This document shows positions 1,972 to 61,966 of a stretch of DNA of 64,000 nt, one piece after another. This stretch comes from Parcubacteria group bacterium Greene0416_36 (GTDB lineage Bacteria > Patescibacteriota > Patescibacteriia > VMEV01). Numbering within the stretch: position 1 is the stretch's first letter; every line of letters starts with the position of its first letter. Below the pieces are notes generated by a model that had not been told where the DNA came from, did not search any database, and was given only the letters and a program-made list of their open reading frames with translations. Location of the stretch: NCBI GenBank assembly GCA_007375725.1, contig VMEV01000002.1, positions 45,992-109,991 on the forward strand. The letters run 5' to 3'. Position numbers and translations under genes: made by a program.

Positions 1972-2050
1972 AAATCCCTCCCCAACCCTCCCTTTGACAA
2001 GGGAGGGGGTAGCAGCCTCCCCCTTGTCAAAGGGGGACTGAGGGGGATTT
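1972..2050. repeat. MITE-like palindromic element copy 1 (CCCTCCCTTTGACAAGGGAGGG / CCCCCTTGTCAAAGGGGG halves)
   Basis: near-perfect ~79 bp palindrome directly after stop of gene 1; same element recurs 5 more times in window. Confidence 0.8.
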
Positions 2051-2391
2051 GGTGTTTGCCTTCTACACCCTTACTTTTTCCAATTTCAAAAGCCAGCTTG
2101 AATTACTTCTCGCTGGCTTTCTTGTTGCTTATCTCGTTCGTAGCTCTTTATTCTTCTATTTCGCCACCCTCCTTGGCAAGGGAATAATGTCGACTTGGGT
2201 TCGTCCCATTATATTTGCTTTAGGGATCGGACGGATTTTTGGGACCGGTCTATAATTTTTTTGTTTTGGTTTCTGGGGCAATTGGGACAATTGTAGGTCT
2301 AATTTAATTCCAAGTCCTGATATTAAGACGATCAATATTACTTGCATTATTGACTCCTGAAAATTTAAAAAAATACGAATGGATCACAATT

Positions 2392-5363: not shown

Positions 5364-5382
5364 AAAACATTAGGGCAAAAAG

Positions 5383-5469
5383 CAACAAATCCCCCTCAAT
5401 CCCCCTTTGACAAGGGGGAGGCTGCTACTCCCTCCCTTGTCAAAGGGAGGGCTGGGGAGGGATTTGTTG
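5383..5469. repeat. MITE-like palindromic element copy 2 (opposite orientation to copy 1)
   Basis: CAACAAATCCC...TTTGACAAGGGGG..CCCTTGTCAAAGGGAGGG...GGGATTTGTTG directly after pnp stop. Confidence 0.8.
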
Positions 5470-5504
5470 TTTGATCATTAAATATCACTTTTTAAAAGAT
5501 AGAT

Positions 5505-6866: not shown

Positions 6867-6883
6867 AAATAAACAACAAATTA

Positions 6884-6976
6884 GCAACAAACCCATCCCT
6901 AACCCTTCCCTTAACAAGGAAGGGAACAGCAACAAACATCCCCCTTATTTAGGGGAGGAGGAGAGGGGTTTGTTGC
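6884..6976. repeat. MITE-like element copy 3 (diverged: CCCTTCCCTTAACAAGGAAGGG)
   Basis: same flank pattern GCAACAAAC...GGGGTTTGTTGC and hairpin halves; after protease gene. Confidence 0.6.
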
Positions 6977-6992
6977 TTACTTTCTATTATAT

Positions 6993-8147
6993 ATGTCTCT
7001 ATTTTTCAAACGTATATTGTTTTTGATGGTCTGTTTGTTTATGCTGCCCCTTTCCGGCTTTGCACAAGAGGCCGTCGAATATGTTCCCAATGAATATTTT
7101 AAGGCGAAAGTAATCGAGGTTCTCGAAGAGGGGGAAATTGAGAAATATGAAGGGGTGAAAGAGACGTATCAAAAAGTGAGGATTGAATTGTTGGATGGGG
7201 CGGAGGCGGGGAAGCGAATGGATCTCGAGCAGGGAAAAACATTCACGCTTCAGAAAAATCAAGTAGTGGCCAAGGGAGAAAGTGTCGTGGTGATCAAAAC
7301 GCCGGTGGGGGAGAATATCCAGTATTTTATTACGGATTCGTACCGTCTGAGTTCCATGGCGTGGCTACTTGCTTTTTTCGTGGCTCTGACGGTATGGGTC
7401 GGGAGGAAGCGCGGGGCCATGTCTTTTTTGGGACTCGTTTTTTCGATTGCGGTCCTCTATTGGGTCATTCTGCCACTATTTGCCAAAGGATATAGCGCTC
7501 TCTGGGTAGGAATTTTGGGAGCTATCGGCATTGCGACGATTTCGATTTATGTCTCTCATGGTAGGAATATCAAATCCACGATTTCTCTCGTTTCTATTAT
7601 TTTGTCACTGATTCTGACAACTATCGTTTCTTATTTGGCGGTAGGGGGAGCGCATTTGCTGGGGCTGGGATCGGAGGAATCGGTATTTGTCGGGCAACTT
7701 ACGACCTTGGATCTCCAGGGGCTTTTACTCGCGGCCATGATTTTGGGAGCACTCGGCGTACTCGATGATATTGTCACGGCGCAGGTTTCGTCGATTTACG
7801 AACTTCGTCGCGCGAATCCGGCTCTGGGATTTCGGGAGCTCTATCGCCGGGGCCTCAATATCGGAAAAGATCATATTGCCTCGCTTGTGAATACCTTGGT
7901 TCTGGCCTATGTCGGCGCGAGTCTGCCTCTATTTTTACTGTTTTACCTCGACAGCCAGGTCCCATTCTGGGTGACGCTCAATAGCGAGACGATTGCTCAG
8001 GAGGTGATCCGAACCCTGTCCGGCAGTATCGGCCTCGTTTTGTCCGTGCCGATCGCGACCTCGCTCGCGGCGTGGGTGTTTGGGAGGAGGGAGTTGGTGG
8101 TGGCTTCGGGGGAGAATTCTGATAGTCATGCGGGGCATGGGCATTGA
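6993..8147 (+). CDS. multi-pass membrane protein with N-terminal extracytoplasmic domain (possibly YibE/F family)
   Basis: signal peptide, ~110-aa soluble domain then >=6 hydrophobic helices; family call from memory only. Confidence 0.35.
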   Translation: MSLFFKRILFLMVCLFMLPLSGFAQEAVEYVPNEYFKAKVIEVLEEGEIEKYEGVKETYQKVRIELLDGAEAGKRMDLEQGKTFTLQKNQVVAKGESVVVIKTPVGENIQYFITDSYRLSSMAWLLAFFVALTVWVGRKRGAMSFLGLVFSIAVLYWVILPLFAKGYSALWVGILGAIGIATISIYVSHGRNIKSTISLVSIILSLILTTIVSYLAVGGAHLLGLGSEESVFVGQLTTLDLQGLLLAAMILGALGVLDDIVTAQVSSIYELRRANPALGFRELYRRGLNIGKDHIASLVNTLVLAYVGASLPLFLLFYLDSQVPFWVTLNSETIAQEVIRTLSGSIGLVLSVPIATSLAAWVFGRRELVVASGENSDSHAGHGH

Positions 8148-8426
8148 TTTTTATTTGCTAAATTAATTGAAAATCTAGTTGCCGAGGAATCCTCGGCAAC
8201 TGTTTCGCATTTGAGCGACGCAAAAATTGAAAGAATTGGCGAAATTTAATCAGAAGCAATTAAAGTAAAAAATAAGATACATTGGATATCTTATTTTATG
8301 CGGCTTTATTCAAAACTTCGGTATTTCTCATGTAAGAAATCCTTTAGAAAAGATGAAAGATTTATAAAGTACTAAACTAGGAATAAAATTACACCTCATA
8401 ATTATTTTCGTCAATAGTTGTATTGG

Positions 8427-8533
8427 CTGAGTCACCTGCACTTTGCGGATGTCCTTTATTTGTAGAGACGCGCCATGGCGCGTCTCTACAAATAAAGGAC
8501 AAAATTCCGTAGCTTCCTAGGTGCAGGTGATTC
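8427..8533. mobile_element. 107 bp MITE-like element with 15 bp terminal inverted repeats and REP core GTAGAGACGCGCCATGGCGCGTCTCTAC, flanked by 11 bp direct repeat AGTTGTATTGG
   Basis: TIRs CTGAGTCACCTGCAC / GTGCAGGTGATTCAG; identical 11-mer at 8416-8426 and 8534-8544 (target-site-duplication-like). Confidence 0.6.
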
Positions 8534-8631
8534 AGTTGTATTGGGTTTTGTAAATTATGAATTAAGAACCGCCTTGACTTGTCCGGCACAAGGTTTAATG
8601 TGAGTTCAAAATATTCTTAACTCCATTTCTT

Positions 8632-9639
8632 ATGCAATCTCAAATTTTGACTTCTTCCACGGAGATCACGCGCGCGACGAAGAAGGAACTGATGGATGCG
8701 TATCACGAACTACTCAAGAAATATAAGGATGATTCTGTATCCTCAGAATCAAAATCTGGGGATCCAAAAAAGGAGTCGGATATAAAAGAATCCGGGCCGG
8801 TTTTTTCGACAGGCAAAGATATTTTTGAGTCTATTCATGCGGCTCGTGGATCGGTGCAAGATTTTCTAGGTCAAATAGAGGGATTGCTGATGGGGAAATT
8901 TTCGGAACTCAAAAAGATGGAAGAGCAGCTGGCACATGGGCAGTCGCAATTAAAACTCCAGTATGATATTGAGGCCAATTCAGCTTCTCTCCTCGCTTTG
9001 ATTCGTGCTAATGATGAGAGCCGGCAGAAATTTGATAAGGAAAAAACAGCCCAGAAACAATTGTGGGCGGAAGAAGTGGAAGCCTCTGGGAAGCAGCGAA
9101 AAAGAGATGAGGAGGAATATTTGTATGCCTTGGAAATCAAAAAGAAAAAAGACGCCGAAGAGCAGGCGGAGATGCGAAAGAAATTTGATCAAGAAATTCA
9201 TTCTAGGGAGAAAGTTTTGATTGACCGCGAGAAAAATATGGCCGATAAAGAATCGGAATTCACCCGCCTCCAGGCTTTGGTCTCGAATTTTGACGCGCGC
9301 ATTGAAGAGACTCGCAAACATGCAGCTGCGGAAACGGAAAAAAGGCTGAAAATCGAGCATGAGGTGGCCATGACCCTTCTGAAAAAAGAAATGGATACTC
9401 AAAAAATAGTGGATTCTTCGAAAATTCATACTCTGGAATCCTTGATGGAATCGCAAAAACAAGGTGTGCGCGAACTTCAGGAGCAGCTTGCCAAGGCCAA
9501 TTCTCAAGTGCAGGAAGTGGTTCTGCGCACCATCGACAGCTCCGCGGGCGGCAAGGCCCTAGATGCGGTTAATAAAATCGCCCTAGAGCAGGCCAAAGGC
9601 GGGGTTTCTCAAAATAAATTCGGCAATAATCGGAATTGA
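8632..9639 (+). CDS. K/E-rich coiled-coil protein, function unknown
   Basis: 335-aa ORF, heptad-like charged repeats. Confidence 0.45.
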   Translation: MQSQILTSSTEITRATKKELMDAYHELLKKYKDDSVSSESKSGDPKKESDIKESGPVFSTGKDIFESIHAARGSVQDFLGQIEGLLMGKFSELKKMEEQLAHGQSQLKLQYDIEANSASLLALIRANDESRQKFDKEKTAQKQLWAEEVEASGKQRKRDEEEYLYALEIKKKKDAEEQAEMRKKFDQEIHSREKVLIDREKNMADKESEFTRLQALVSNFDARIEETRKHAAAETEKRLKIEHEVAMTLLKKEMDTQKIVDSSKIHTLESLMESQKQGVRELQEQLAKANSQVQEVVLRTIDSSAGGKALDAVNKIALEQAKGGVSQNKFGNNRN

Positions 9640-9660: not shown

Positions 9661-9707
9661 AAAGTGTAAGGGGTCCGACGTTACGTCGGACCCCTTACAC
9701 TTTTTTT
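9661..9707. terminator. bidirectional intrinsic terminator hairpin (A-run / GTAAGGGGTCCGACG..CGTCGGACCCCTTAC / T-run)
   Basis: 20 bp stem, A-tract upstream and T-tract downstream, between convergent genes. Confidence 0.7.
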
Positions 9708-10278: not shown

Positions 10279-10308
10279 GGTAGGGGCACAGCGCGCTGTG
10301 CTCCTACC
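10279..10308. repeat. REP-like hairpin GGTAGGGGCACAGCGCGCTGTGCTCCTACC (A-run upstream, T-run downstream)
   Basis: GTAG...CTAC palindrome; related copies inside glycosyltransferase gene at 56169-56226. Confidence 0.55.
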
Positions 10309-19296: not shown

Positions 19297-19325
19297 GTAG
19301 GGACGTTGCATTGCAACGTCCCTAC
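19297..19325. repeat. REP-like hairpin GTAGGGACGTTGCATTGCAACGTCCCTAC (extended stem 19290-19332)
   Basis: perfect palindrome after kinase gene; near-identical copy at 59959-59986. Confidence 0.55.
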
Positions 19326-28272: not shown

Positions 28273-28300
28273 GTAAGGGCGTATTGCAATACGCCCTTAC
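28273..28300. repeat. REP hairpin GTAAGGGCGTATTGCAATACGCCCTTAC (family A), between SBP gene stop and tRNA-Leu
   Basis: identical 28-mer also inside and just after the RAYT gene (41268, 41569). Confidence 0.6.
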
Positions 28301-30719: not shown

Positions 30720-31505
30720 GTGGATTCTAAATGTAAAAATGCGTATAATGCCTTTGATCTTACCTCGGTTTATTTTATGGAAGAGCAAAAAAATCCTCCG
30801 GACCGGAAATTTATCTCACAAATCTTATTTTTCGCCCTTTTGTTTCTAGTTCTTGTGGCTGTGGGAGCTGGAATTGCTTTGTATTCATTTTTTCAATCTG
30901 AAAAGTCGCTGGGGCCTGGCGAATTATCCGGAGGCGCCATAACGGTCACCGAGTATGGGGATCCGGTGATCGGCCCGGCCAATGCTCTTATATCGGTCTA
31001 TGAATTCTCAGATTTTTCTTGCTCTTTCTGTCGCCAATCAGCTGATAGTCTTCGTTCCATATTGCTTCGCTACGATGGAAAGGTAAAATGGGTTTATAAA
31101 GATTTTCCGATTGCCTCGCTTCATCCCAACGCAATGATAGCCGCTATGGCTGGAGCCTGCGCCCATGAGCAGGGAAAATTCGTGGCCATGCACGATGCGA
31201 TTTTTGCCAATCAGCAATATCAAAGCCGTGAGAATTTGATCCGATACGCCAAAACCGTGGGCCTCGGCCAATCCCAGTTTATCGAGTGTTTGGATTCCAG
31301 CAAATTCCAGTCCGAGGTGGAGAGCGATTTGCGCGAAGGGATATCTCTCGGTGTCACTGCCACCCCCACTTGGTTCATCAATGGGCAGAAGATTGAAGGG
31401 GCGTTGTCGGAGGAGGAGCTGGCCAAGATATTTGATCAAATTCTTGGAGAAATTAAGAATGAAGAATTAAGAATGAACAGCCAATTCACTGTTGTTCATT
31501 CTTAA
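30720..31505 (+). CDS. membrane-anchored DsbA-like thioredoxin-fold thiol-disulfide oxidoreductase
   Basis: CSFC active-site CxxC, single N-terminal TM; possible start at MEEQKNP ~30777. Confidence 0.55.
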   Translation: MDSKCKNAYNAFDLTSVYFMEEQKNPPDRKFISQILFFALLFLVLVAVGAGIALYSFFQSEKSLGPGELSGGAITVTEYGDPVIGPANALISVYEFSDFSCSFCRQSADSLRSILLRYDGKVKWVYKDFPIASLHPNAMIAAMAGACAHEQGKFVAMHDAIFANQQYQSRENLIRYAKTVGLGQSQFIECLDSSKFQSEVESDLREGISLGVTATPTWFINGQKIEGALSEEELAKIFDQILGEIKNEELRMNSQFTVVHS

Positions 31506-31526
31506 TTCTTAATTCTTCATTGTTTT

Positions 31527-36843: not shown

Positions 36844-36871
36844 AATTTGAGAGATTTTTTATAAAAAAATA

Positions 36872-36899
36872 GTAGAGACGCGCCATGGCGCGTCTCTAC
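36872..36899. terminator. REP hairpin GTAGAGACGCGCCATGGCGCGTCTCTAC flanked by A-run/T-run (bidirectional terminator, family C)
   Basis: perfect 28 bp palindrome between convergent small ORF and glyA; same core as 8462-8489. Confidence 0.6.
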
Positions 36900-36917
36900 T
36901 ATTTTTTTATGATCTCT

Positions 36918-38165: not shown

Positions 38166-38297
38166 AGGGAATTAAAAATTAAGAATGAAGAATGAAGAAT
38201 GAAGAATTTTCTGCAACCTTATCAAATATAAAGGGGTTTGGACAGTTGCAAAATGATTTATTTTGTGTATAATTATCTAATTATTATCAGACAATTT

Positions 38298-39579: not shown

Positions 39580-39658
39580 TTTTTTGACACGGTAAGTTTG
39601 GATCGGGGATCTCAGGTCCCTAAAATTTTTTTATCGGTATTCACACGACCGCAAAAAA

Positions 39659-39688
39659 GGTAAGGGCTCAAAATTTTGAGCCCTTACC
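39659..39688. repeat. hairpin GGTAAGGGCTCAAAATTTTGAGCCCTTACC + T-run; core of ~100 bp repeat unit E (copy 1, ~39632-39733)
   Basis: whole ~100 bp unit duplicated at ~40274-40378. Confidence 0.55.
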
Positions 39689-39776
39689 TTTTTTAGATGG
39701 GGGGAATAATTTGAGAATAAAAAAATCAGAACCTTGGATGGTCTGAAATTTTGTGAGGTGGAGTAGTCCTCTGGTT

Positions 39777-40132: not shown

Positions 40133-40190
40133 TTTTTGTCAATATACCCATCCTCCTCATTATTTTGTAAGATAGGCGGGAATTGGGGAA
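40133..40190. repeat. ~56 bp conserved motif TTTGTCAATATACCCATCCTCCTCATTATTTTGTAAGATAGGCGGGAATTGGGGAA (copy A)
   Basis: repeated at 40866-40922 (abutting RAYT start) and 45318-45377. Confidence 0.5.
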
Positions 40191-40303
40191 GGTAGAGATA
40201 AAATACGAATTAATGATTAGGTCTTTAGGCCCGCTTTAGGGCGAAGTGGGAGGATCTCATCTACTTGGGGTCTCTTATCGATACTCACTTGACGGCTAAA
40301 AAA

Positions 40304-40333
40304 GGTAAGGGCTCAAAATTTTGAGCCCTTACC
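40304..40333. repeat. repeat unit E copy 2 hairpin GGTAAGGGCTCAAAATTTTGAGCCCTTACC
   Basis: identical to 39659-39688 including flanks. Confidence 0.55.
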
Positions 40334-40433
40334 TTTTTTAGCGGGGGGGGGAATAATTTTGGAATAAAAAAATCAGAATTTTCATTCTGAGTTTTTTGCG
40401 CCTAGATTTGCGGACGCGATTTTTATATTGCGA

Positions 40434-40865: not shown

Positions 40866-40922
40866 TTTTGTCAATATACCCATCCTCCCCATTATTTTGT
40901 AAGATAGGCGGGAATTGGGGAA
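40866..40922. repeat. 56-bp motif copy B, immediately 5' of RAYT start codon
   Basis: ends GGGAATTGGGGAAAT-ATG; ORF-track N-terminus (MSIYPSS...) is read-through of this motif. Confidence 0.5.
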
Positions 40923-40924
40923 AT

Positions 40925-41527
40925 ATGTCGGTCACATATGAATGGGAGCGGAAATCGATGAGACTTGTGGGCTATGATTATTCGAAGCCGGGGTTTTATT
41001 TTGTGACGGTTTTGACGAAGGATAGGGAATGTTTGTTTGGGGAGATTGAAGAGGGGGAGATGAGGTTGGGTGAGATGGGAAAGATTGCGGAGGGAGAGTG
41101 TTTGAAAACTTCGGAGATTCGAAAAAACATCAAGGTTGATTGTTTTGTGGTGATGCCAAATCATGTTCATGGGATTATTGAGATTATGGATGTTGACGGC
41201 GATCCGGGTAAGGACAATGTACTCGAGTCTCGACCTGGTAAGGGCACGGTGCTTGAGAGTCTACCCGGTAAGGGCGTATTGCAATACGCCCTTACCTCGA
41301 GTCGGGTGGGGTTTCGTTCTCCGTCCAATAATCTTGGTGCCGTGATCAGGGGATATAAATCATCAGTCACCAAACAAATCAATGACCTTCGTAATACCCC
41401 GTGCAATCCTGTCTGGCACCGCAACTACCACGATCACATCATCCGATCACTGGAGGAACTTGAAAATATCCGAGAGTATATAAAAAATAATCCACGAAGA
41501 TGGAAAGACGATCCGGAGAATGTTTAA
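40925..41527 (+). CDS. REP-associated tyrosine transposase (RAYT; IS200-like HuH transposase) carrying in-frame REP/tandem-repeat insert
   Basis: HuH motif MPNHVHGII, C-terminal WHRNYHDHIIRS...IREYIKNNPRRW; standalone, no IS ends recognised. Confidence 0.7.
   Translation: MSVTYEWERKSMRLVGYDYSKPGFYFVTVLTKDRECLFGEIEEGEMRLGEMGKIAEGECLKTSEIRKNIKVDCFVVMPNHVHGIIEIMDVDGDPGKDNVLESRPGKGTVLESLPGKGVLQYALTSSRVGFRSPSNNLGAVIRGYKSSVTKQINDLRNTPCNPVWHRNYHDHIIRSLEELENIREYIKNNPRRWKDDPENV
41204..41306 (+). repeat. three tandem ~30 bp repeats (CCnGGTAAGGnCAnnGTnCTnGAGnCTCnA), third containing REP GTAAGGGCGTATTGCAATACGCCCTTAC (41268-41295), in-frame inside RAYT
   Basis: encodes PGKDNVLESR / PGKGTVLESL / PGKGVLQYAL in the loop where RAYTs normally have a Gly-rich segment. 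Confidence 0.65.
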
Positions 41528-41568: not shown

Positions 41569-41596
41569 GTAAGGGCGTATTGCAATACGCCCTTAC
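41569..41596. repeat. REP GTAAGGGCGTATTGCAATACGCCCTTAC 42 nt downstream of RAYT stop
   Basis: third identical copy of family A. Confidence 0.6.
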
Positions 41597-41788: not shown

Positions 41789-44773
41789 ATGCAAGAACAA
41801 AAAAAATCCTTCCTCTCTGAAATAGAGGAAAAAATACTCGAATTTTGGGACAAAGACAAAACATTTGAGAAGTCGGTAAACGAGCGGCCGGAATCAAAGC
41901 CTTATGTCTTTTATGACGGGCCTCCTTTTGCGACCGGTCTCCCTCATTATGGACATATCTTGGCGTCGACTTCCAAGGATATGGTTCCGCGATACTGGAC
42001 CATGAAAGGGTATCGGGTGGAGCGGCGGTGGGGATGGGATTGTCATGGCCTTCCGATCGAAAACATCGCTGAAAAGGAACTCAAAATCAGTGGCAAAAAA
42101 GCGATTGAGGAGATGGGCATTGATAAATTCAACGAGTTTTGCCGATCGAAAGTGCTCACTTATGCCAAGGATTGGGGGACAATAGTGCGTCGCATCGGCC
42201 GATGGGTGGATTTTGATAATGCCTACATGACCATGGATAATTCGTATATCGAGTCCGTGTGGTGGGCATTCAAGCAAATGCATGGAAAGGGCCTGATATA
42301 CGAAGGCAAAAAAGTGCTTCTCTACTGCTCCCGCTGTGAGACGCCGATTTCGAATTTCGAGATAGCGATGGATAATAGTTATAAGGATGTGGAGGAGGAA
42401 ACCGCTATCGCGAAATTAAAAATTAAAAATGAAAAATTAAAAATTGGAACAACAAATAATACTTACTTTTTGGCGTGGACGACGACACCGTGGACCCTAG
42501 TAGGGAATTTGGCATTGGCGATCAATAAAGATTTTGAATATGTGGTGGTGGCGAAAGATGGGATGAATGAGCAAATGATCTTGGCTAAGTCGGCATTTGA
42601 AAAACAGCAGGATTTGTATGCGGGATATTCGGTGGTGGAAACAGTTCGGGGGGAGAAACTATTAGATTTGGAATATGAACCGCTCTACGAGATGAATGCG
42701 GGCGGCAAGCGGGGATTTTATGCTTTGGATGGGGGAGCGGATGTGACTGCGGATGATGGAACGGGTATGGTCCATATGGCCATGTATGGTGAGTTCGACT
42801 ATGAAATGGCCAAGAAATATGATTTGCCTCAGATCATTCATTTGGATGAAATGGGAAAACTCAAAGAAGGGCCGGAAGCTTGGAAAGGCGTTTATTTCAA
42901 GAAATTGAATGGTTTGGTTTTGGAAGATCTCAAAAGTCGGGGACTTTTATTTGCTTCTCCGAAACATAGTCATTCGTATCCATTCTGTTATCGCTGTGCC
43001 ACGCCACTCTATTACGCGCCGATCCCGGCTTGGTTTATCGCCGTATCTAAAATCAAATCTCGTCTCCTCGAACTAAACGCGACGGGAAAAAATACCAATG
43101 GCAAAGATGTGGGCATCAATTGGGTACCGGATCATCTCAAGGAGGGCCGGTTCAAGAACAGTCTCGAAGGCGCGCCGGACTGGAATATTTCCAGAAACCG
43201 TTATTGGGCCTCTTCGATTCCCGTGTGGAAATGCGTGGATTGCGGAAAGCAGGAAGTTTTCGGATCCGTACAAGAATTGCGAGATAAGGCGACCAATCTC
43301 AAAGAATTAGGCTTGGAAAAAGCCGAGATCGATCTGCACAAACATGTTGTGGATAAAATATTGGTGGAGTGTGAGTGTGGTAAATCGATGCATCGTATTC
43401 CCGAAGTCATTGACTGCTGGGTGGAAAGCGCGTCCATGCCTTTCGCGGCGGAACATTACCCCTTCGAAAATGCTAAAAAATTCGAGCATTCATTTCCAGC
43501 TCAATTTGTCAGCGAATATATCGCTCAAACCCGGGCGTGGTTCTACGTTTGTCTTGTTCTCTCTGGAGCAGTATTCGACAAGATTCCTTTTGAAAATGTG
43601 GTGGTGACTGGTACGATCATGGCCGAGGATGGCACGAAAATGTCCAAATCTAAAGGGAATTATCCGGATCCCATGGGACTGATCAACCGTTTTGGTGTCG
43701 ATGCTCTGCGTCTCTATCTCATGTCTTCTCCTGTAATGAAAGGCGAATCCCTCAATTTTTCTGAGAAAGGCGTGGATGAAATGGCCAAGAAAGTCGTGAT
43801 GCTCTTGTATAATGTGGTGAATTTTTATGAGTTGTTTGTAACAAATCCCCCTCGGTCCCCCTTTGACAAGGGGGAAGAGGGTGTTGTTTCCCCCTCCCTT
43901 GTCAAAGGGAGGGTTGGGGTGGGATTTGTTGCCTCTACCCCATCGACAGGAAACATTCTCGACCGCTGGATCCTGTCCAAATTGAATACTCTGATTACTG
44001 AGATGACCGAAAAATATGATCGCTATGAACTAGTCGATGGCACGCGGCTGCTTCCTTCCTTCATCGATGAACTCTCCACCTGGTATGTCCGCCGTTCGCG
44101 GGACCGGTTTAAGGGGGAGGATGAGGCGGATCGACAAAGCGCTTTAGCGACTCTGGGTTTTGTTTTGTCGGAGCTTTCTAAACTGCTGGCTCCCGTTGCG
44201 CCCTTTACGGCTGAACAGGTTTGGATGCGGCTGGGTAATAAAACCTCGGTGCATTTGGAACCGTGGCCGGTCGCCAGTAAGGGCGTGGATGAAAAAGTGG
44301 TGGAAGAGATGGATTTTGTCCGAAAAATTGTCGAAGATGTTCATCGCCAGCGCGCAGAAGCGGGCGTGAAGGTGCGACAACCTCTTGGAAAAGTAGAATT
44401 AACTCTTCCTTTCGGACTTTCTCGAGATTTGGTTGATATTTTGAAAGATGAAGTGAATGTACTCGAAGTGATTCAGAAAAAAGGGGAGTGGAAAGTAGCG
44501 CTTGATACTCAACTTACTGAAGAACTTAAAAAAGCTGGAATGTTTCGAGAACTGGTCCGCCAGATCAACGGCATGCGAAAGGAATCAGGACTCTCGATCG
44601 GTGATTTTGTCACCATGGAATACCTCTCTGATCCTCAATTATCTGCTTGGATTGAATCTAATCGCGAGATATTAGCCAAACAGGTTTTGGCTTCGAAGAT
44701 TGTGGCGGGAGGGGATGGAGGGAAGGAACTGGATTTGGATGGGAAGAAGTTGGTGTGGAAAATTGTGAAATAA
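41789..44773 (+). CDS. ileS: isoleucyl-tRNA synthetase carrying in-frame MITE-derived 31-aa insert
   Basis: HIGH variant PHYGHIL, KMSKS, editing and anticodon-binding regions; insert at 43841-43932. Confidence 0.9.
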   Translation: MQEQKKSFLSEIEEKILEFWDKDKTFEKSVNERPESKPYVFYDGPPFATGLPHYGHILASTSKDMVPRYWTMKGYRVERRWGWDCHGLPIENIAEKELKISGKKAIEEMGIDKFNEFCRSKVLTYAKDWGTIVRRIGRWVDFDNAYMTMDNSYIESVWWAFKQMHGKGLIYEGKKVLLYCSRCETPISNFEIAMDNSYKDVEEETAIAKLKIKNEKLKIGTTNNTYFLAWTTTPWTLVGNLALAINKDFEYVVVAKDGMNEQMILAKSAFEKQQDLYAGYSVVETVRGEKLLDLEYEPLYEMNAGGKRGFYALDGGADVTADDGTGMVHMAMYGEFDYEMAKKYDLPQIIHLDEMGKLKEGPEAWKGVYFKKLNGLVLEDLKSRGLLFASPKHSHSYPFCYRCATPLYYAPIPAWFIAVSKIKSRLLELNATGKNTNGKDVGINWVPDHLKEGRFKNSLEGAPDWNISRNRYWASSIPVWKCVDCGKQEVFGSVQELRDKATNLKELGLEKAEIDLHKHVVDKILVECECGKSMHRIPEVIDCWVESASMPFAAEHYPFENAKKFEHSFPAQFVSEYIAQTRAWFYVCLVLSGAVFDKIPFENVVVTGTIMAEDGTKMSKSKGNYPDPMGLINRFGVDALRLYLMSSPVMKGESLNFSEKGVDEMAKKVVMLLYNVVNFYELFVTNPPRSPFDKGEEGVVSPSLVKGRVGVGFVASTPSTGNILDRWILSKLNTLITEMTEKYDRYELVDGTRLLPSFIDELSTWYVRRSRDRFKGEDEADRQSALATLGFVLSELSKLLAPVAPFTAEQVWMRLGNKTSVHLEPWPVASKGVDEKVVEEMDFVRKIVEDVHRQRAEAGVKVRQPLGKVELTLPFGLSRDLVDILKDEVNVLEVIQKKGEWKVALDTQLTEELKKAGMFRELVRQINGMRKESGLSIGDFVTMEYLSDPQLSAWIESNREILAKQVLASKIVAGGDGGKELDLDGKKLVWKIVK
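43841..43932. repeat. MITE-like element copy 4, inserted in-frame within ileS coding sequence
   Basis: ACAAATCCCC..CCCTTTGACAAGGGGG..CCCTCCCTTGTCAAAGGGAGGG..GGGATTTGTTGC; 93 bp = 31 codons, translated as ...PFDKGEEGVVSPSLVKGRVG... Confidence 0.75.
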
Positions 44774-45520: not shown

Positions 45521-46099
45521 ATGTTAGGCTGGCTCCGCGGCACAATCCGCTATCTCTCCTCCCGCCATATCATTCTCGATATCGGCGGAGTTGGGTATGA
45601 AGTTTGGGTTCCGACACGTCTGTCCGGGTCTTTTTTACCTGATTCCACCGCGGAATTTTTCATTCATCATATCATCCGCGAAGATGCCAATTTACTTTAC
45701 GGGTTTCCCACGAGCGGGGAGTTGGAGTTGTTTAAGTTGCTGCTGACTGTCTCCGGCGTGGGACCCAAGACGGCGCTCTCGGTGCTCGACGGCGCGGAGC
45801 CTCTCGACATTATCCGCGCTTTGGGCCAGGAAGATGCGTCATTTTTCAAAAATATTTCAGGGATAGGCGCCAAGACTTCGGAGCGGATCATTCTTGAACT
45901 TAAGGGGAAGGTCGAGAAAATGTCGGCCTCGTCTCTGGGGGGAGAGTCCAGCATGGCATATCAAAATCAAGAAGATATTATTTCGGCCTTGGTGGCTTTG
46001 GGGTATCAGGCGGTATCCGTGCGCCGGATTGTTCGCGAATTAGGGCCCGTGGCTTCGGCTCAGGAAGGCATCCGCCGGGCATTGGCGAAGTTGAAGTGA
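45521..46099 (+). CDS. ruvA: Holliday junction branch-migration protein RuvA
   Basis: MLGWLRGTI...VGYEVWVP OB domain, HhH LLTVSGVGPKTALSVL. Confidence 0.85.
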   Translation: MLGWLRGTIRYLSSRHIILDIGGVGYEVWVPTRLSGSFLPDSTAEFFIHHIIREDANLLYGFPTSGELELFKLLLTVSGVGPKTALSVLDGAEPLDIIRALGQEDASFFKNISGIGAKTSERIILELKGKVEKMSASSLGGESSMAYQNQEDIISALVALGYQAVSVRRIVRELGPVASAQEGIRRALAKLK

Positions 46100-46107
46100 T
46101 AGTAGGC

Positions 46108-46156
46108 TGTTTCTCCCTTCCTTGTTAAGGGAAGGGTTGGGGATGGGTTTGTTGCT
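46108..46156. repeat. half copy of MITE-like element (copy 5, matches right half of diverged copy 3)
   Basis: CCCTTCCTTGTTAAGGGAAGGGTTGGGGATGGGTTTGTTGC directly after ruvA stop. Confidence 0.5.
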
Positions 46157-46165
46157 AATATTTTT

Positions 46166-51611: not shown

Positions 51612-51613
51612 GA

Positions 51614-51699
51614 ACAACAAATCCCTCCCCAACCCTCCCTTTGACAAGGGAGGGGGTGGCCTCCCCCTTGTCAAAGGGGGATTGAGGGGGATTTGTTGC
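51614..51699. repeat. MITE-like element copy 6, between DUF3048-like gene and pilin gene
   Basis: CAACAAATCCCTCCCCAACCCTCCCTTTGACAAGGGAGGGGGTGGCCTCCCCCTTGTCAAAGGGGGATTGAGGGGGATTTGTTGC. Confidence 0.8.
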
Positions 51700-51708
51700 T
51701 TCAAATAT

Positions 51709-59958: not shown

Positions 59959-59986
59959 AGTAGGGACGTTGGATGCAACGTCCCTA
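59959..59986. repeat. REP-like hairpin GTAGGGACGTTGGATGCAACGTCCCTAC (family B copy 2)
   Basis: 28 nt after hydrolase stop; near-identical to 19297-19325. Confidence 0.55.
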
Positions 59987-60136
59987 CTCAATGGTCTGAC
60001 ATTGACTCATCACCCTTTCTTTTATAGACTAAAACAATTATTAAATTTGGATTTTTGAGATTCTGTTGTTTCTAGATCCTGAATCCTTCCGCCAAAGGCG
60101 GATCCGCCTTTGGCGGAAAATCCTGAATCCTAATCT

Positions 60137-61920: not shown

Positions 61921-61966
61921 ACTGTAAGGGCTCCGATGTTACATCGGAGCCCTTACAGTTTTTTTA
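61921..61966 (+). terminator. intrinsic terminator ACTGTAAGGGCTCCGATGT-TA-ACATCGGAGCCCTTACAGT + T7
   Basis: 19 bp stem right after aspS; GTAAGGG..CCCTTAC ends like the REP family. Confidence 0.7.

Follow-up and report, generated by a model that had tools for sequence, protein, structure and literature searches.

What kind of mobile DNA has placed a repetitive extragenic palindrome (REP) inside a miniature inverted-repeat transposable element (MITE)-like structure is the question raised by a locus at 8416-8544 of the window, a 64,000-nt stretch (positions 45,992 to 109,991) of contig VMEV01000002.1 from the metagenome-assembled genome (MAG) of Parcubacteria group bacterium Greene0416_36. The initial annotation described a REP core embedded in a 107-bp MITE and suggested that REP cores are carried by such larger mobile units. 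The data presented here indicated that the locus is probably a solitary MITE-like transposition relic holding a nested REP of the type linked to REP-associated tyrosine transposases (RAYTs), and thus combines two unrelated kinds of small mobile DNA.

The outer layer of the locus, referred to below as the shell, is bounded by a left terminal inverted repeat (TIR), CTGAGTCACCTGCAC (8427-8441, plus strand), and a right TIR, GTGCAGGTGATTCAG (8521-8535, minus strand). As first described, the two are complementary at 14 of 15 positions, and an identical 11-mer, AGTTGTATTGG, lies on both sides at 8416-8426 and 8534-8544. The exact 11-mer has only these two copies in the window, and the 15-mer TIR is present there only as the two arms of the shell. 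The right TIR shares two nucleotides (AG) with the right 11-mer and two parses are therefore equally possible. In the first, the duplication is 11 bp long, the ends are cut to 13 nt and the element measures 107 bp; in the second, the ends keep their full 15 nt, the element measures 109 bp (8427-8535) and the duplication shrinks to the 9 bp of TTGTATTGG (8418-8426 and 8536-8544). The coordinates first given are in this respect slightly inconsistent, as the right TIR stops at 8535 and not at 8533. Inward from the TIRs (plus strand), an 8-nt left spacer, TTTGCGGA (8442-8449), is followed by a left outer arm, TGTCCTTTATTT (8450-8461), the REP GTAGAGACGCGCCATGGCGCGTCTCTAC, itself a perfect 28-nt palindrome (8462-8489), a right outer arm, AAATAAAGGACA (8490-8501), and a 19-nt right spacer, AAATTCCGTAGCTTCCTAG (8502-8520). 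The spacers are asymmetric in length, and CGGA in the left one is able to pair with TCCG in the right one. The arms adjoin the REP and are specific to this locus; together with it they form a perfect palindrome of 26+26 nt (8450-8501, 52 nt), which accounts for the nested stem reported around the core. A single open reading frame (ORF) crosses the shell (8389-8589, minus strand, 66 aa), with no Pfam match. The TIRs, the abutting duplication and the small non-coding size (107-109 bp) are those of a MITE.

This combination of TIRs and duplication was above chance expectation. The window was scanned for inverted repeats (10 nt or longer) immediately bordered by direct repeats (5 nt or longer), using 100 first-order Markov simulations of the window as a control. 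One match was found in the real window, corresponding to the shell with its 11-nt direct repeat; across the simulated windows no bordering direct repeat exceeded 8 nt, a length reached a single time, and lengths were typically 0-5 nt. The 11-mer could in principle belong to a longer tandem duplication; no such duplication was found around it, and the flanks outside the two 11-mers differ. The shell was also detected in an independent assembly variant, NCBI contig VMHD01000001.1 (L001; GCA_007379055.1, Parcubacteria group bacterium Gr01-1014_18 MAG), and its right half in a Logan contig listed for four samples (L002), which begins at the palindrome centre. We therefore conclude that it is no assembly artefact. 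It was present in every assembly read, namely the window, L001, the contig extension L240 and L002. Past transposition with target-site duplication, as proposed by the initial annotation, is the simplest explanation for TIRs and an abutting 9-11 bp repeat that are both real and non-random. Judging from this architecture, a cut-and-paste (DDE-type) transposase would have inserted the shell (8427-8535), and a staggered cut of 9-11 bp would leave TTGTATTGG or AGTTGTATTGG duplicated.

The inner layer belongs to a different class of element. Double-foot REPs have the feet GT[AG]G at the 5' end and C[TC]AC at the 3' end of a long hairpin, and are tied to subclass 2.4 of the Y1/HUH transposase TnpA_REP (RAYT), reported from 'Cyanobacteria, Bacteroidetes and various phyla' (PMC6006769). 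Proteins of this subclass are about 194 aa long, with the motifs NH[IFV]H, WQ and YIxNNP, and a trait unique to them is the presence of in-frame REPs in the tnpA_REP gene, in the stretch from the HuH motif to the Y motif (PMC6006769). The core at 8462-8489 is a perfect 28-nt palindrome hairpin with GTAG at its 5' foot and CTAC at its 3' foot, and the window encodes a RAYT of the matching subclass. It is thus a double-foot REP of the RAYT/TnpA_REP subclass 2.4 type, and the name 'REP core' given to it earlier was right (PMC6006769).

The RAYT/TnpA_REP-like gene (40925-41527, plus strand, 200 aa) lies about 32 kb from the shell and is annotated 'hypothetical protein' in the MAG. Its product contains GFYFVTVLTK, PNHVHGII (HuH motif PNHVH), a W motif reading WH and the Y motif YIKNNP. 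Between HuH and Y, an in-frame REP (41268-41295) is read as GKGVLQYALT, with two degenerate 30-nt GGTAAGG units beside it. The same REP, GTAAGGGCGTATTGCAATACGCCCTTAC, recurs at 41569-41596, 42 nt after the RAYT stop codon, and two REPs of another family lie upstream (39660-39687 and 40305-40332). REPs are therefore found on both sides of the gene (40305-40332 and 41569-41596), which is the arrangement of a REPtron. NCBIfam NF047646, 'REP-associated tyrosine transposase', matched the RAYT with an E-value of 6.7e-18 (65 bits, cut-off 80). The alignment is split in two, as would fit the in-frame insert, and the match to Pfam Y1_Tnp was weak. More than 6,300 homologues were found, many of them named 'REP element-mobilizing transposase RayT', the nearest at 54% identity in Bacteroidota/Balneola. 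With such a RAYT in the window, the label 'REP' is justified in its strict sense.

RAYT-like ORFs were also seen near the core in other genomes (L005, L044, L062, L069, L106 and L120). The GTAGAGACGCG REP, to which the core of the shell belongs, is in frame as RDAMHRVST or RDAINRVST within the RAYTs of L005, L106 (twice) and L120, and the RAYTs of L120 (E 1e-37), L005 and L106 are homologous to that of the window. By analogy with these homologues, the window RAYT may also act on GTAGAGACGCG REPs. It is likely to be the mobiliser of the REPs of this genome, presumably including the one in the shell, which it would move through single-stranded hairpin chemistry. Two duplications were observed next to the gene. 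A 57-nt promoter-like segment, TTTGTCAATATACCCATCCTCCCCATTATTTTGTAAGATAGGCGGGAATTGGGGAA, directly 5' of the RAYT start (40866-40922) has a duplicate 730 nt upstream (40134-40190) at 98% identity, and an 81-nt REP-plus-tail segment is duplicated at 39653-39731 and 40298-40378 (92.6%), the outer arms of the second copy being 3 nt longer.

The relation between REP and shell can be viewed against the other REPs of the same genome. The reachable source sequence amounted to 79.5 kb, the window being extended by L240 and L236, which add about 7.6 kb on its upstream side and 7.9 kb on its downstream side. It contains 12 double-foot REPs, two of them identical copies of the core and ten related, spanning several sequence families (GTAGAGACGCG, GTAAGGGC..., GTAGGGAC..., GTAGGGGCAC..., GTAAGGGGTCC...). 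Apart from the copy within the RAYT gene, they lie between genes. The second identical copy (36872-36899) lies between convergent ORFs, has the arms ATAAAAAAATA / TATTTTTTTAT and, unlike the 8450-8501 copy, is flanked with its arms (36861-36910) by an A-run and a T-run. Neither TIRs nor an abutting direct repeat were found around this REP or any of the other ten outside the shell. Because the identical REP has other flanks and the remaining REPs have no TIR or duplication, REP and shell are independent of each other.

This result bears directly on the idea that the whole 107-109 bp unit, including the REP, moved as one piece and that such MITEs spread REP cores. The TIRs and the duplication do enclose the REP, and in Nostocales and relatives a REP with an AAATTT apex is a constant part of a TIR-bounded repeat of about 90 nt, so that REPs do occur as passengers of MITEs. 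However, no second copy of the shell appeared in any search, the 11 other REPs in the 79.5 kb, including the identical one, lack it, and the window has a RAYT of the matching subclass, which would make a separate REP vehicle unnecessary. We therefore regard carriage by the shell as unlikely. As a general rule for this genome, the suggestion that larger mobile units carry REP cores was not borne out: the core at 36872 has a different setting, and none of the more than 120 cores sampled in other genomes has the shell. Under the explanation that we favour, a relic with a nested REP, REPs spread through a RAYT-linked route that is their own, and the shell would be one context among many. The REP most likely entered the shell's central palindrome, TGTCCTTTATTT|AAATAAAGGACA, as a nested passenger, whether before or after the shell itself moved.

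The core itself is widespread. A scan for TAGAGACGCG-N6-CGCGTCTCTA, taking one genome per species, gave at least 120 stretches (L003-L122), and base counts were made over 124 copies. Among the matches listed, the core arms occur in Nostocales and other Cyanobacteria, Bacteroidota, Chloroflexota, Omnitrophota, Acidobacteriota, Methylococcales and at least eight genomes of the candidate phyla radiation (CPR). The full GTAG...CTAC was found in 104 of the 124 listed copies, and the central six bases were self-complementary in 93 (ATTAAT, CCATGG, ATGCAT, AAATTT and others). The most common outward neighbours of the core in the listed copies are T and A, giving a 30-nt unit; T8461 and A8490 complete this unit at the shell locus. 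A length of 30 nt explains why about two dozen listed copies lie in frame within long ORFs.

Several further observations were made on these copies. Among L003-L122, REP arms of 28-30 nt are unchanged across very distant phyla. By eye, in-frame REPs were seen in ordinary-looking genes encoding RecG-like helicase (L037), TsaD/Kae1-like (L055), HypF-like (L073) and MnmA-like (L103) proteins. The REP is nested within its own copies in L009, L020 and L061, and within cyanobacterial heptamer arrays in L068, L076 and L092. A Parabacteroides distasonis plasmid, NZ_OY725768.1 (L241, 1501-1545), carries a related REP, GTAGAGACGGGGCACGCCCCGTCTCTAC, 13 nt beyond the point where an S41 peptidase gene is annotated to end; its outer arms, TTATTT/AAATAA, are the same inner flank as that of the REP in the shell. 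No REP-less allele of this plasmid REP was found among plasmids.

The shell, by comparison, is a singleton within everything searched. The search for other copies of the 107-bp element, which the initial annotation had called for, gave none in the window or elsewhere in the 79.5 kb of source contig. A scan of JGI metagenomes for the TIR pair TCACCTGCAC-N50-80-GTGCAGGTGA returned 113 stretches, all unrelated GC-rich sequences or other families, and none reached CTGAG/CTCAG. A blastn search of the element against plasmids and phages gave a match confined to the REP region, a protein-word search using the arms translated without the REP gave zero candidates, and none of more than 120 core copies sampled in other genomes was surrounded by the shell. 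In the literature the core string retrieved unrelated primer matches only, and the REP peptide strings nothing.

Several points weigh against the explanation that we favour. The shell is single-copy, while a MITE is by definition a family, and its duplication is ambiguous in length, 9 or 11 bp. No transposase sharing the ends of the shell came to light, and in the Pfam listings for the called genes of L001, L236 and L240 (part of the 79.5 kb) no transposase was noticed besides the Y1 RAYT. The source genome was covered over about 80 kb, and the gene next to the shell has its nearest relative at 39% identity. The transposition step is thus read from the architecture of the locus, a classical and strong signature. 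On the side of the REP, the RAYT falls under curated cut-offs (65 bits versus 80; 20 versus 23), its W motif is WH and not WQ, and the REPs in and beside it are of the GTAAGGGC family, whereas the core of the shell is of the GTAGAGACGCG family.

The nested stem had been assigned to the MITE. Inspection of the other REPs indicated a different origin: 10 of the 12 REPs in the 79.5 kb are directly abutted by perfect outer arms of 7-12 nt, whose sequence differs at each site. Besides the one in the shell, the REPs centred in such locus-specific palindromes lie at 9666-9698, 10280-10307, 19297-19325, 28273-28300, 36872-36899, 39660-39687, 40305-40332, 59960-59987 and 61924-61956. These nine represent at least six sequence families (GTAG/GTAA...CTAC/TTAC); all are intergenic, mostly just 3' of genes and often with an A-run and a T-run like a bidirectional terminator. 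Only the REP within the RAYT gene and the REP that closely follows this gene lack outer arms. Of 131 such REPs in other genomes, 10 had arms of 5 nt or more, compared with 10 of 12 here (Fisher p 1.5e-8). Since so many REPs own perfect arms, we reassigned the nested stem from the shell to the REP: the outer palindrome belongs to REP placement or maturation in this genome.

How such settings arise may be asked of the REP-free hairpins of the same contig, roughly 18 in number, which mostly have ordinary asymmetric loops. The loop remnants expected from a plain insertion in existing terminator loops are absent around the REPs, which argues against that route. We tentatively suggest, as a possibility that we hold well below an even chance, that REPs in this CPR genome are inserted at the exact centres of perfect palindromes or build these palindromes themselves. 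Either the Y1 enzyme would insert structure-specifically at hairpin or cruciform tips, or the REP would seed palindrome growth by hairpin-primed template switching, with arms made symmetric after insertion. If this is true, the central palindrome of the MITE would be one such target of REP insertion, and the locus would be a natural record of a RAYT depositing REPs, a process of which we know no direct demonstration.

A related process could have produced the shell with no transposase at all, its nested inverted repeats, and possibly the duplication, resulting from REP-seeded template switching or hairpin-primed repair synthesis. The same process would provide the other REPs with perfect arms, at the frequencies given above (10/12 against 10/131), and the mostly asymmetric loops of REP-free hairpins suggest that arms were symmetrised in association with the REP. 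Also in favour are the 36861 copy, where a further inverted repeat of 7 nt (GAGAGAT / ATCTCTC), its spacers asymmetric, was seen by eye outside the arms, and the duplicated REP loci at 39653 and 40295, where the arms are 3 nt longer in one. Template switching would account for inverted repeats, yet it leaves unexplained the exact direct repeat of 9-11 bp that lies precisely outside both arms; no direct repeat of this kind was found at the other REP loci, and the spacers of 8 and 19 nt carry sequence that does not derive from the flanks. We consider this origin of the shell improbable, more so than carriage of the REP by the shell, and retain the reading of a transposed shell with a nested REP.

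The shell sits in a 484-bp spacer. On the upstream side of this spacer is a YibE/F-family gene (6993-8147, plus strand), followed by a hairpin at 8177-8201, and on its downstream side a gene for a 335-aa hypothetical protein (8632-9639, plus strand). A promoter-like site (8361-8389) precedes the shell, and the shell in turn precedes the start codon of the downstream gene. This position, a very stable fold of the region as single-stranded DNA (-48 kcal/mol, z = -13.7) and the A-run/T-run flanks that make other REP hairpins of the window resemble bidirectional terminators are what would be expected of a host cis element (a terminator, an attenuator, a small RNA or a protein-binding site) with a coincidental direct repeat. 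However, neither strand has a T-run after the 8450-8501 hairpin (flanks GCGGA/AAAATTCC) and the terminator scan makes no call, which renders a terminator role improbable for this copy. Rfam, scanned over the region with E-values and over the whole window at gathering thresholds, gave only generic miRNA-model hairpin matches and one tRNA; with no family above noise, a known structured RNA was rejected. The direct repeat is moreover far beyond chance and the arms are conserved nowhere else searched. A cis element is thus highly improbable and, given the missing terminator T-run, the shell is probably neutral cargo. An integron attC site was also considered and rejected, because the R' core GTTRRRY is mismatched by GTTGTAT.

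Other repeats were observed in the window. A second family of about 90 nt has copies at 1972-2051, 5380-5471, 43840-43931 and 51613-51701 and diverged copies at 6880-6975 and 46114-46159; its inverted ends read (G)CAACAAATCCC...GGGATTTGTTG(C), it contains two internal hairpins (CCCCCTTTGACAAGGGGGA), and it resembles a REPIN or a MITE, although a target duplication is not obvious. Over 19.6 kb, the sole difference between the window and GCA_007379055.1 is a 22-nt indel, AGGGGGACTGAGGGGGATTTGG (window 2031-2052), inside one copy of this repeat, a population or assembly variant. A 63-nt hairpin of AAGAATG/AAGAATT heptamer-like repeats was found at 31455-31517, with a related heptamer run at 38176-38203, and a perfect 32-nt palindrome with no REP, TTCCGCCAAAGGCGGATCCGCCTTTGGCGGAA, at 60087-60118. 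The Logan contigs L002 and L237-L239 start where perfect palindromes have their centres, at 8475/8476 and about 60095-60102, so that such palindromes fragment de Bruijn assemblies.

Collectively, the locus is a genuine, if minor, variant of what is already known of bacterial repeats, and its practical value is modest. Selfish DNA would be nested here in two layers, the shell being of DDE type and the REP of Y1/RAYT type, within a very small CPR genome, and the locus corrects for this genome the view of MITEs as REP carriers. The window also adds Parcubacteria to the hosts of a complete REPtron, formed by a RAYT with an in-frame REP and with REPs on its flanks. The most interesting remainder is the near-universal presence of locus-specific palindromes around REPs (10 of 12 in the 79.5 kb), and the cause of this setting would bear on the still unproven mechanism of RAYT dissemination.

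Among known systems, the shell is closest in form to the bacterial MITEs that derive from DDE insertion sequences (ISs) with duplications of 9 bp or longer, for example IS1 and the IS4 family. Like them it is short and non-coding, with 15-nt TIRs starting CTGA and a flanking duplication of 9-11 bp; it differs in that no family, parent IS or sequence likeness to a known element was shown. The ends of IS10 and IS50 begin CTGA/CTGAC and duplicate 9 bp, and the CTGA termini of the shell, with the 9-bp parse of its duplication, may point to this branch of the IS4 family.

Nesting of a REP in a MITE-like element has a counterpart in cyanobacteria. According to Elhai et al. 2008 (Genome Res 18:1484; cited in PMC3116915), small dispersed repeats are nested in minitransposons of heterocystous cyanobacteria, a very small palindrome reportedly occurring inside MITE-like elements, inside its own copies and in heptamer arrays. 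Similarly, the 28-mer studied here was also seen in a TIR element of about 90 nt, in itself and in heptamer repeats. In that Nostocales/Stigonema repeat (TAGACATCTCCGAAAAAGAATG-REP-...TTTCTGGAGATGTCTA) the AAATTT-apex REP is fixed inside at seven independent sites (L008, L027, L064 at 7094-7182 and 7745-7833, L089, L102 and L109), the flanks of which differ and each of which is bounded by TA. We take this repeat to resemble an IS630/mariner-type MITE. The cyanobacterial carrier is multi-copy and TA-bounded, whereas the shell is single-copy, of unrelated sequence and bounded by a 9-11 bp duplication.

REPINs are hairpin-forming non-autonomous units made of two inverted REPs, linked to a single-copy RAYT and devoid of target duplication (PMC3116915). 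The shell locus is likewise a hairpin-forming non-autonomous unit linked to a RAYT; it was rejected as a REPIN, as the shell arms, CTGAGTCACCTGCAC, have no GTAG foot or hairpin of their own and are flanked by a direct repeat. REPs centred in longer palindromes have been described for A. variabilis GTAG-15, T. roseum GTAG-23 and H. neapolitanus CGTC-1 (PMC3733652). Those palindromes fit a consensus, pointing to a repeated target or carrier, whereas the outer palindromes in this genome all differ in sequence.

The closest relatives of the inner layer are the REPtrons of subclass 2.4 (Bertels group 4), with which the window and the stretches L005, L044, L106 and L120 share the feet, the NH[IFV]H and YIxNNP motifs, and REPs both flanking the RAYT gene and in frame within it (PMC6006769). 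Compared with these, the system described here has a CPR/Parcubacteria MAG as its host, a W motif reading WH and several REP families that begin with GTAA; nearly all of its REPs are set in perfect locus-specific palindromes, and one lies inside a shell with TIRs and a flanking duplication.

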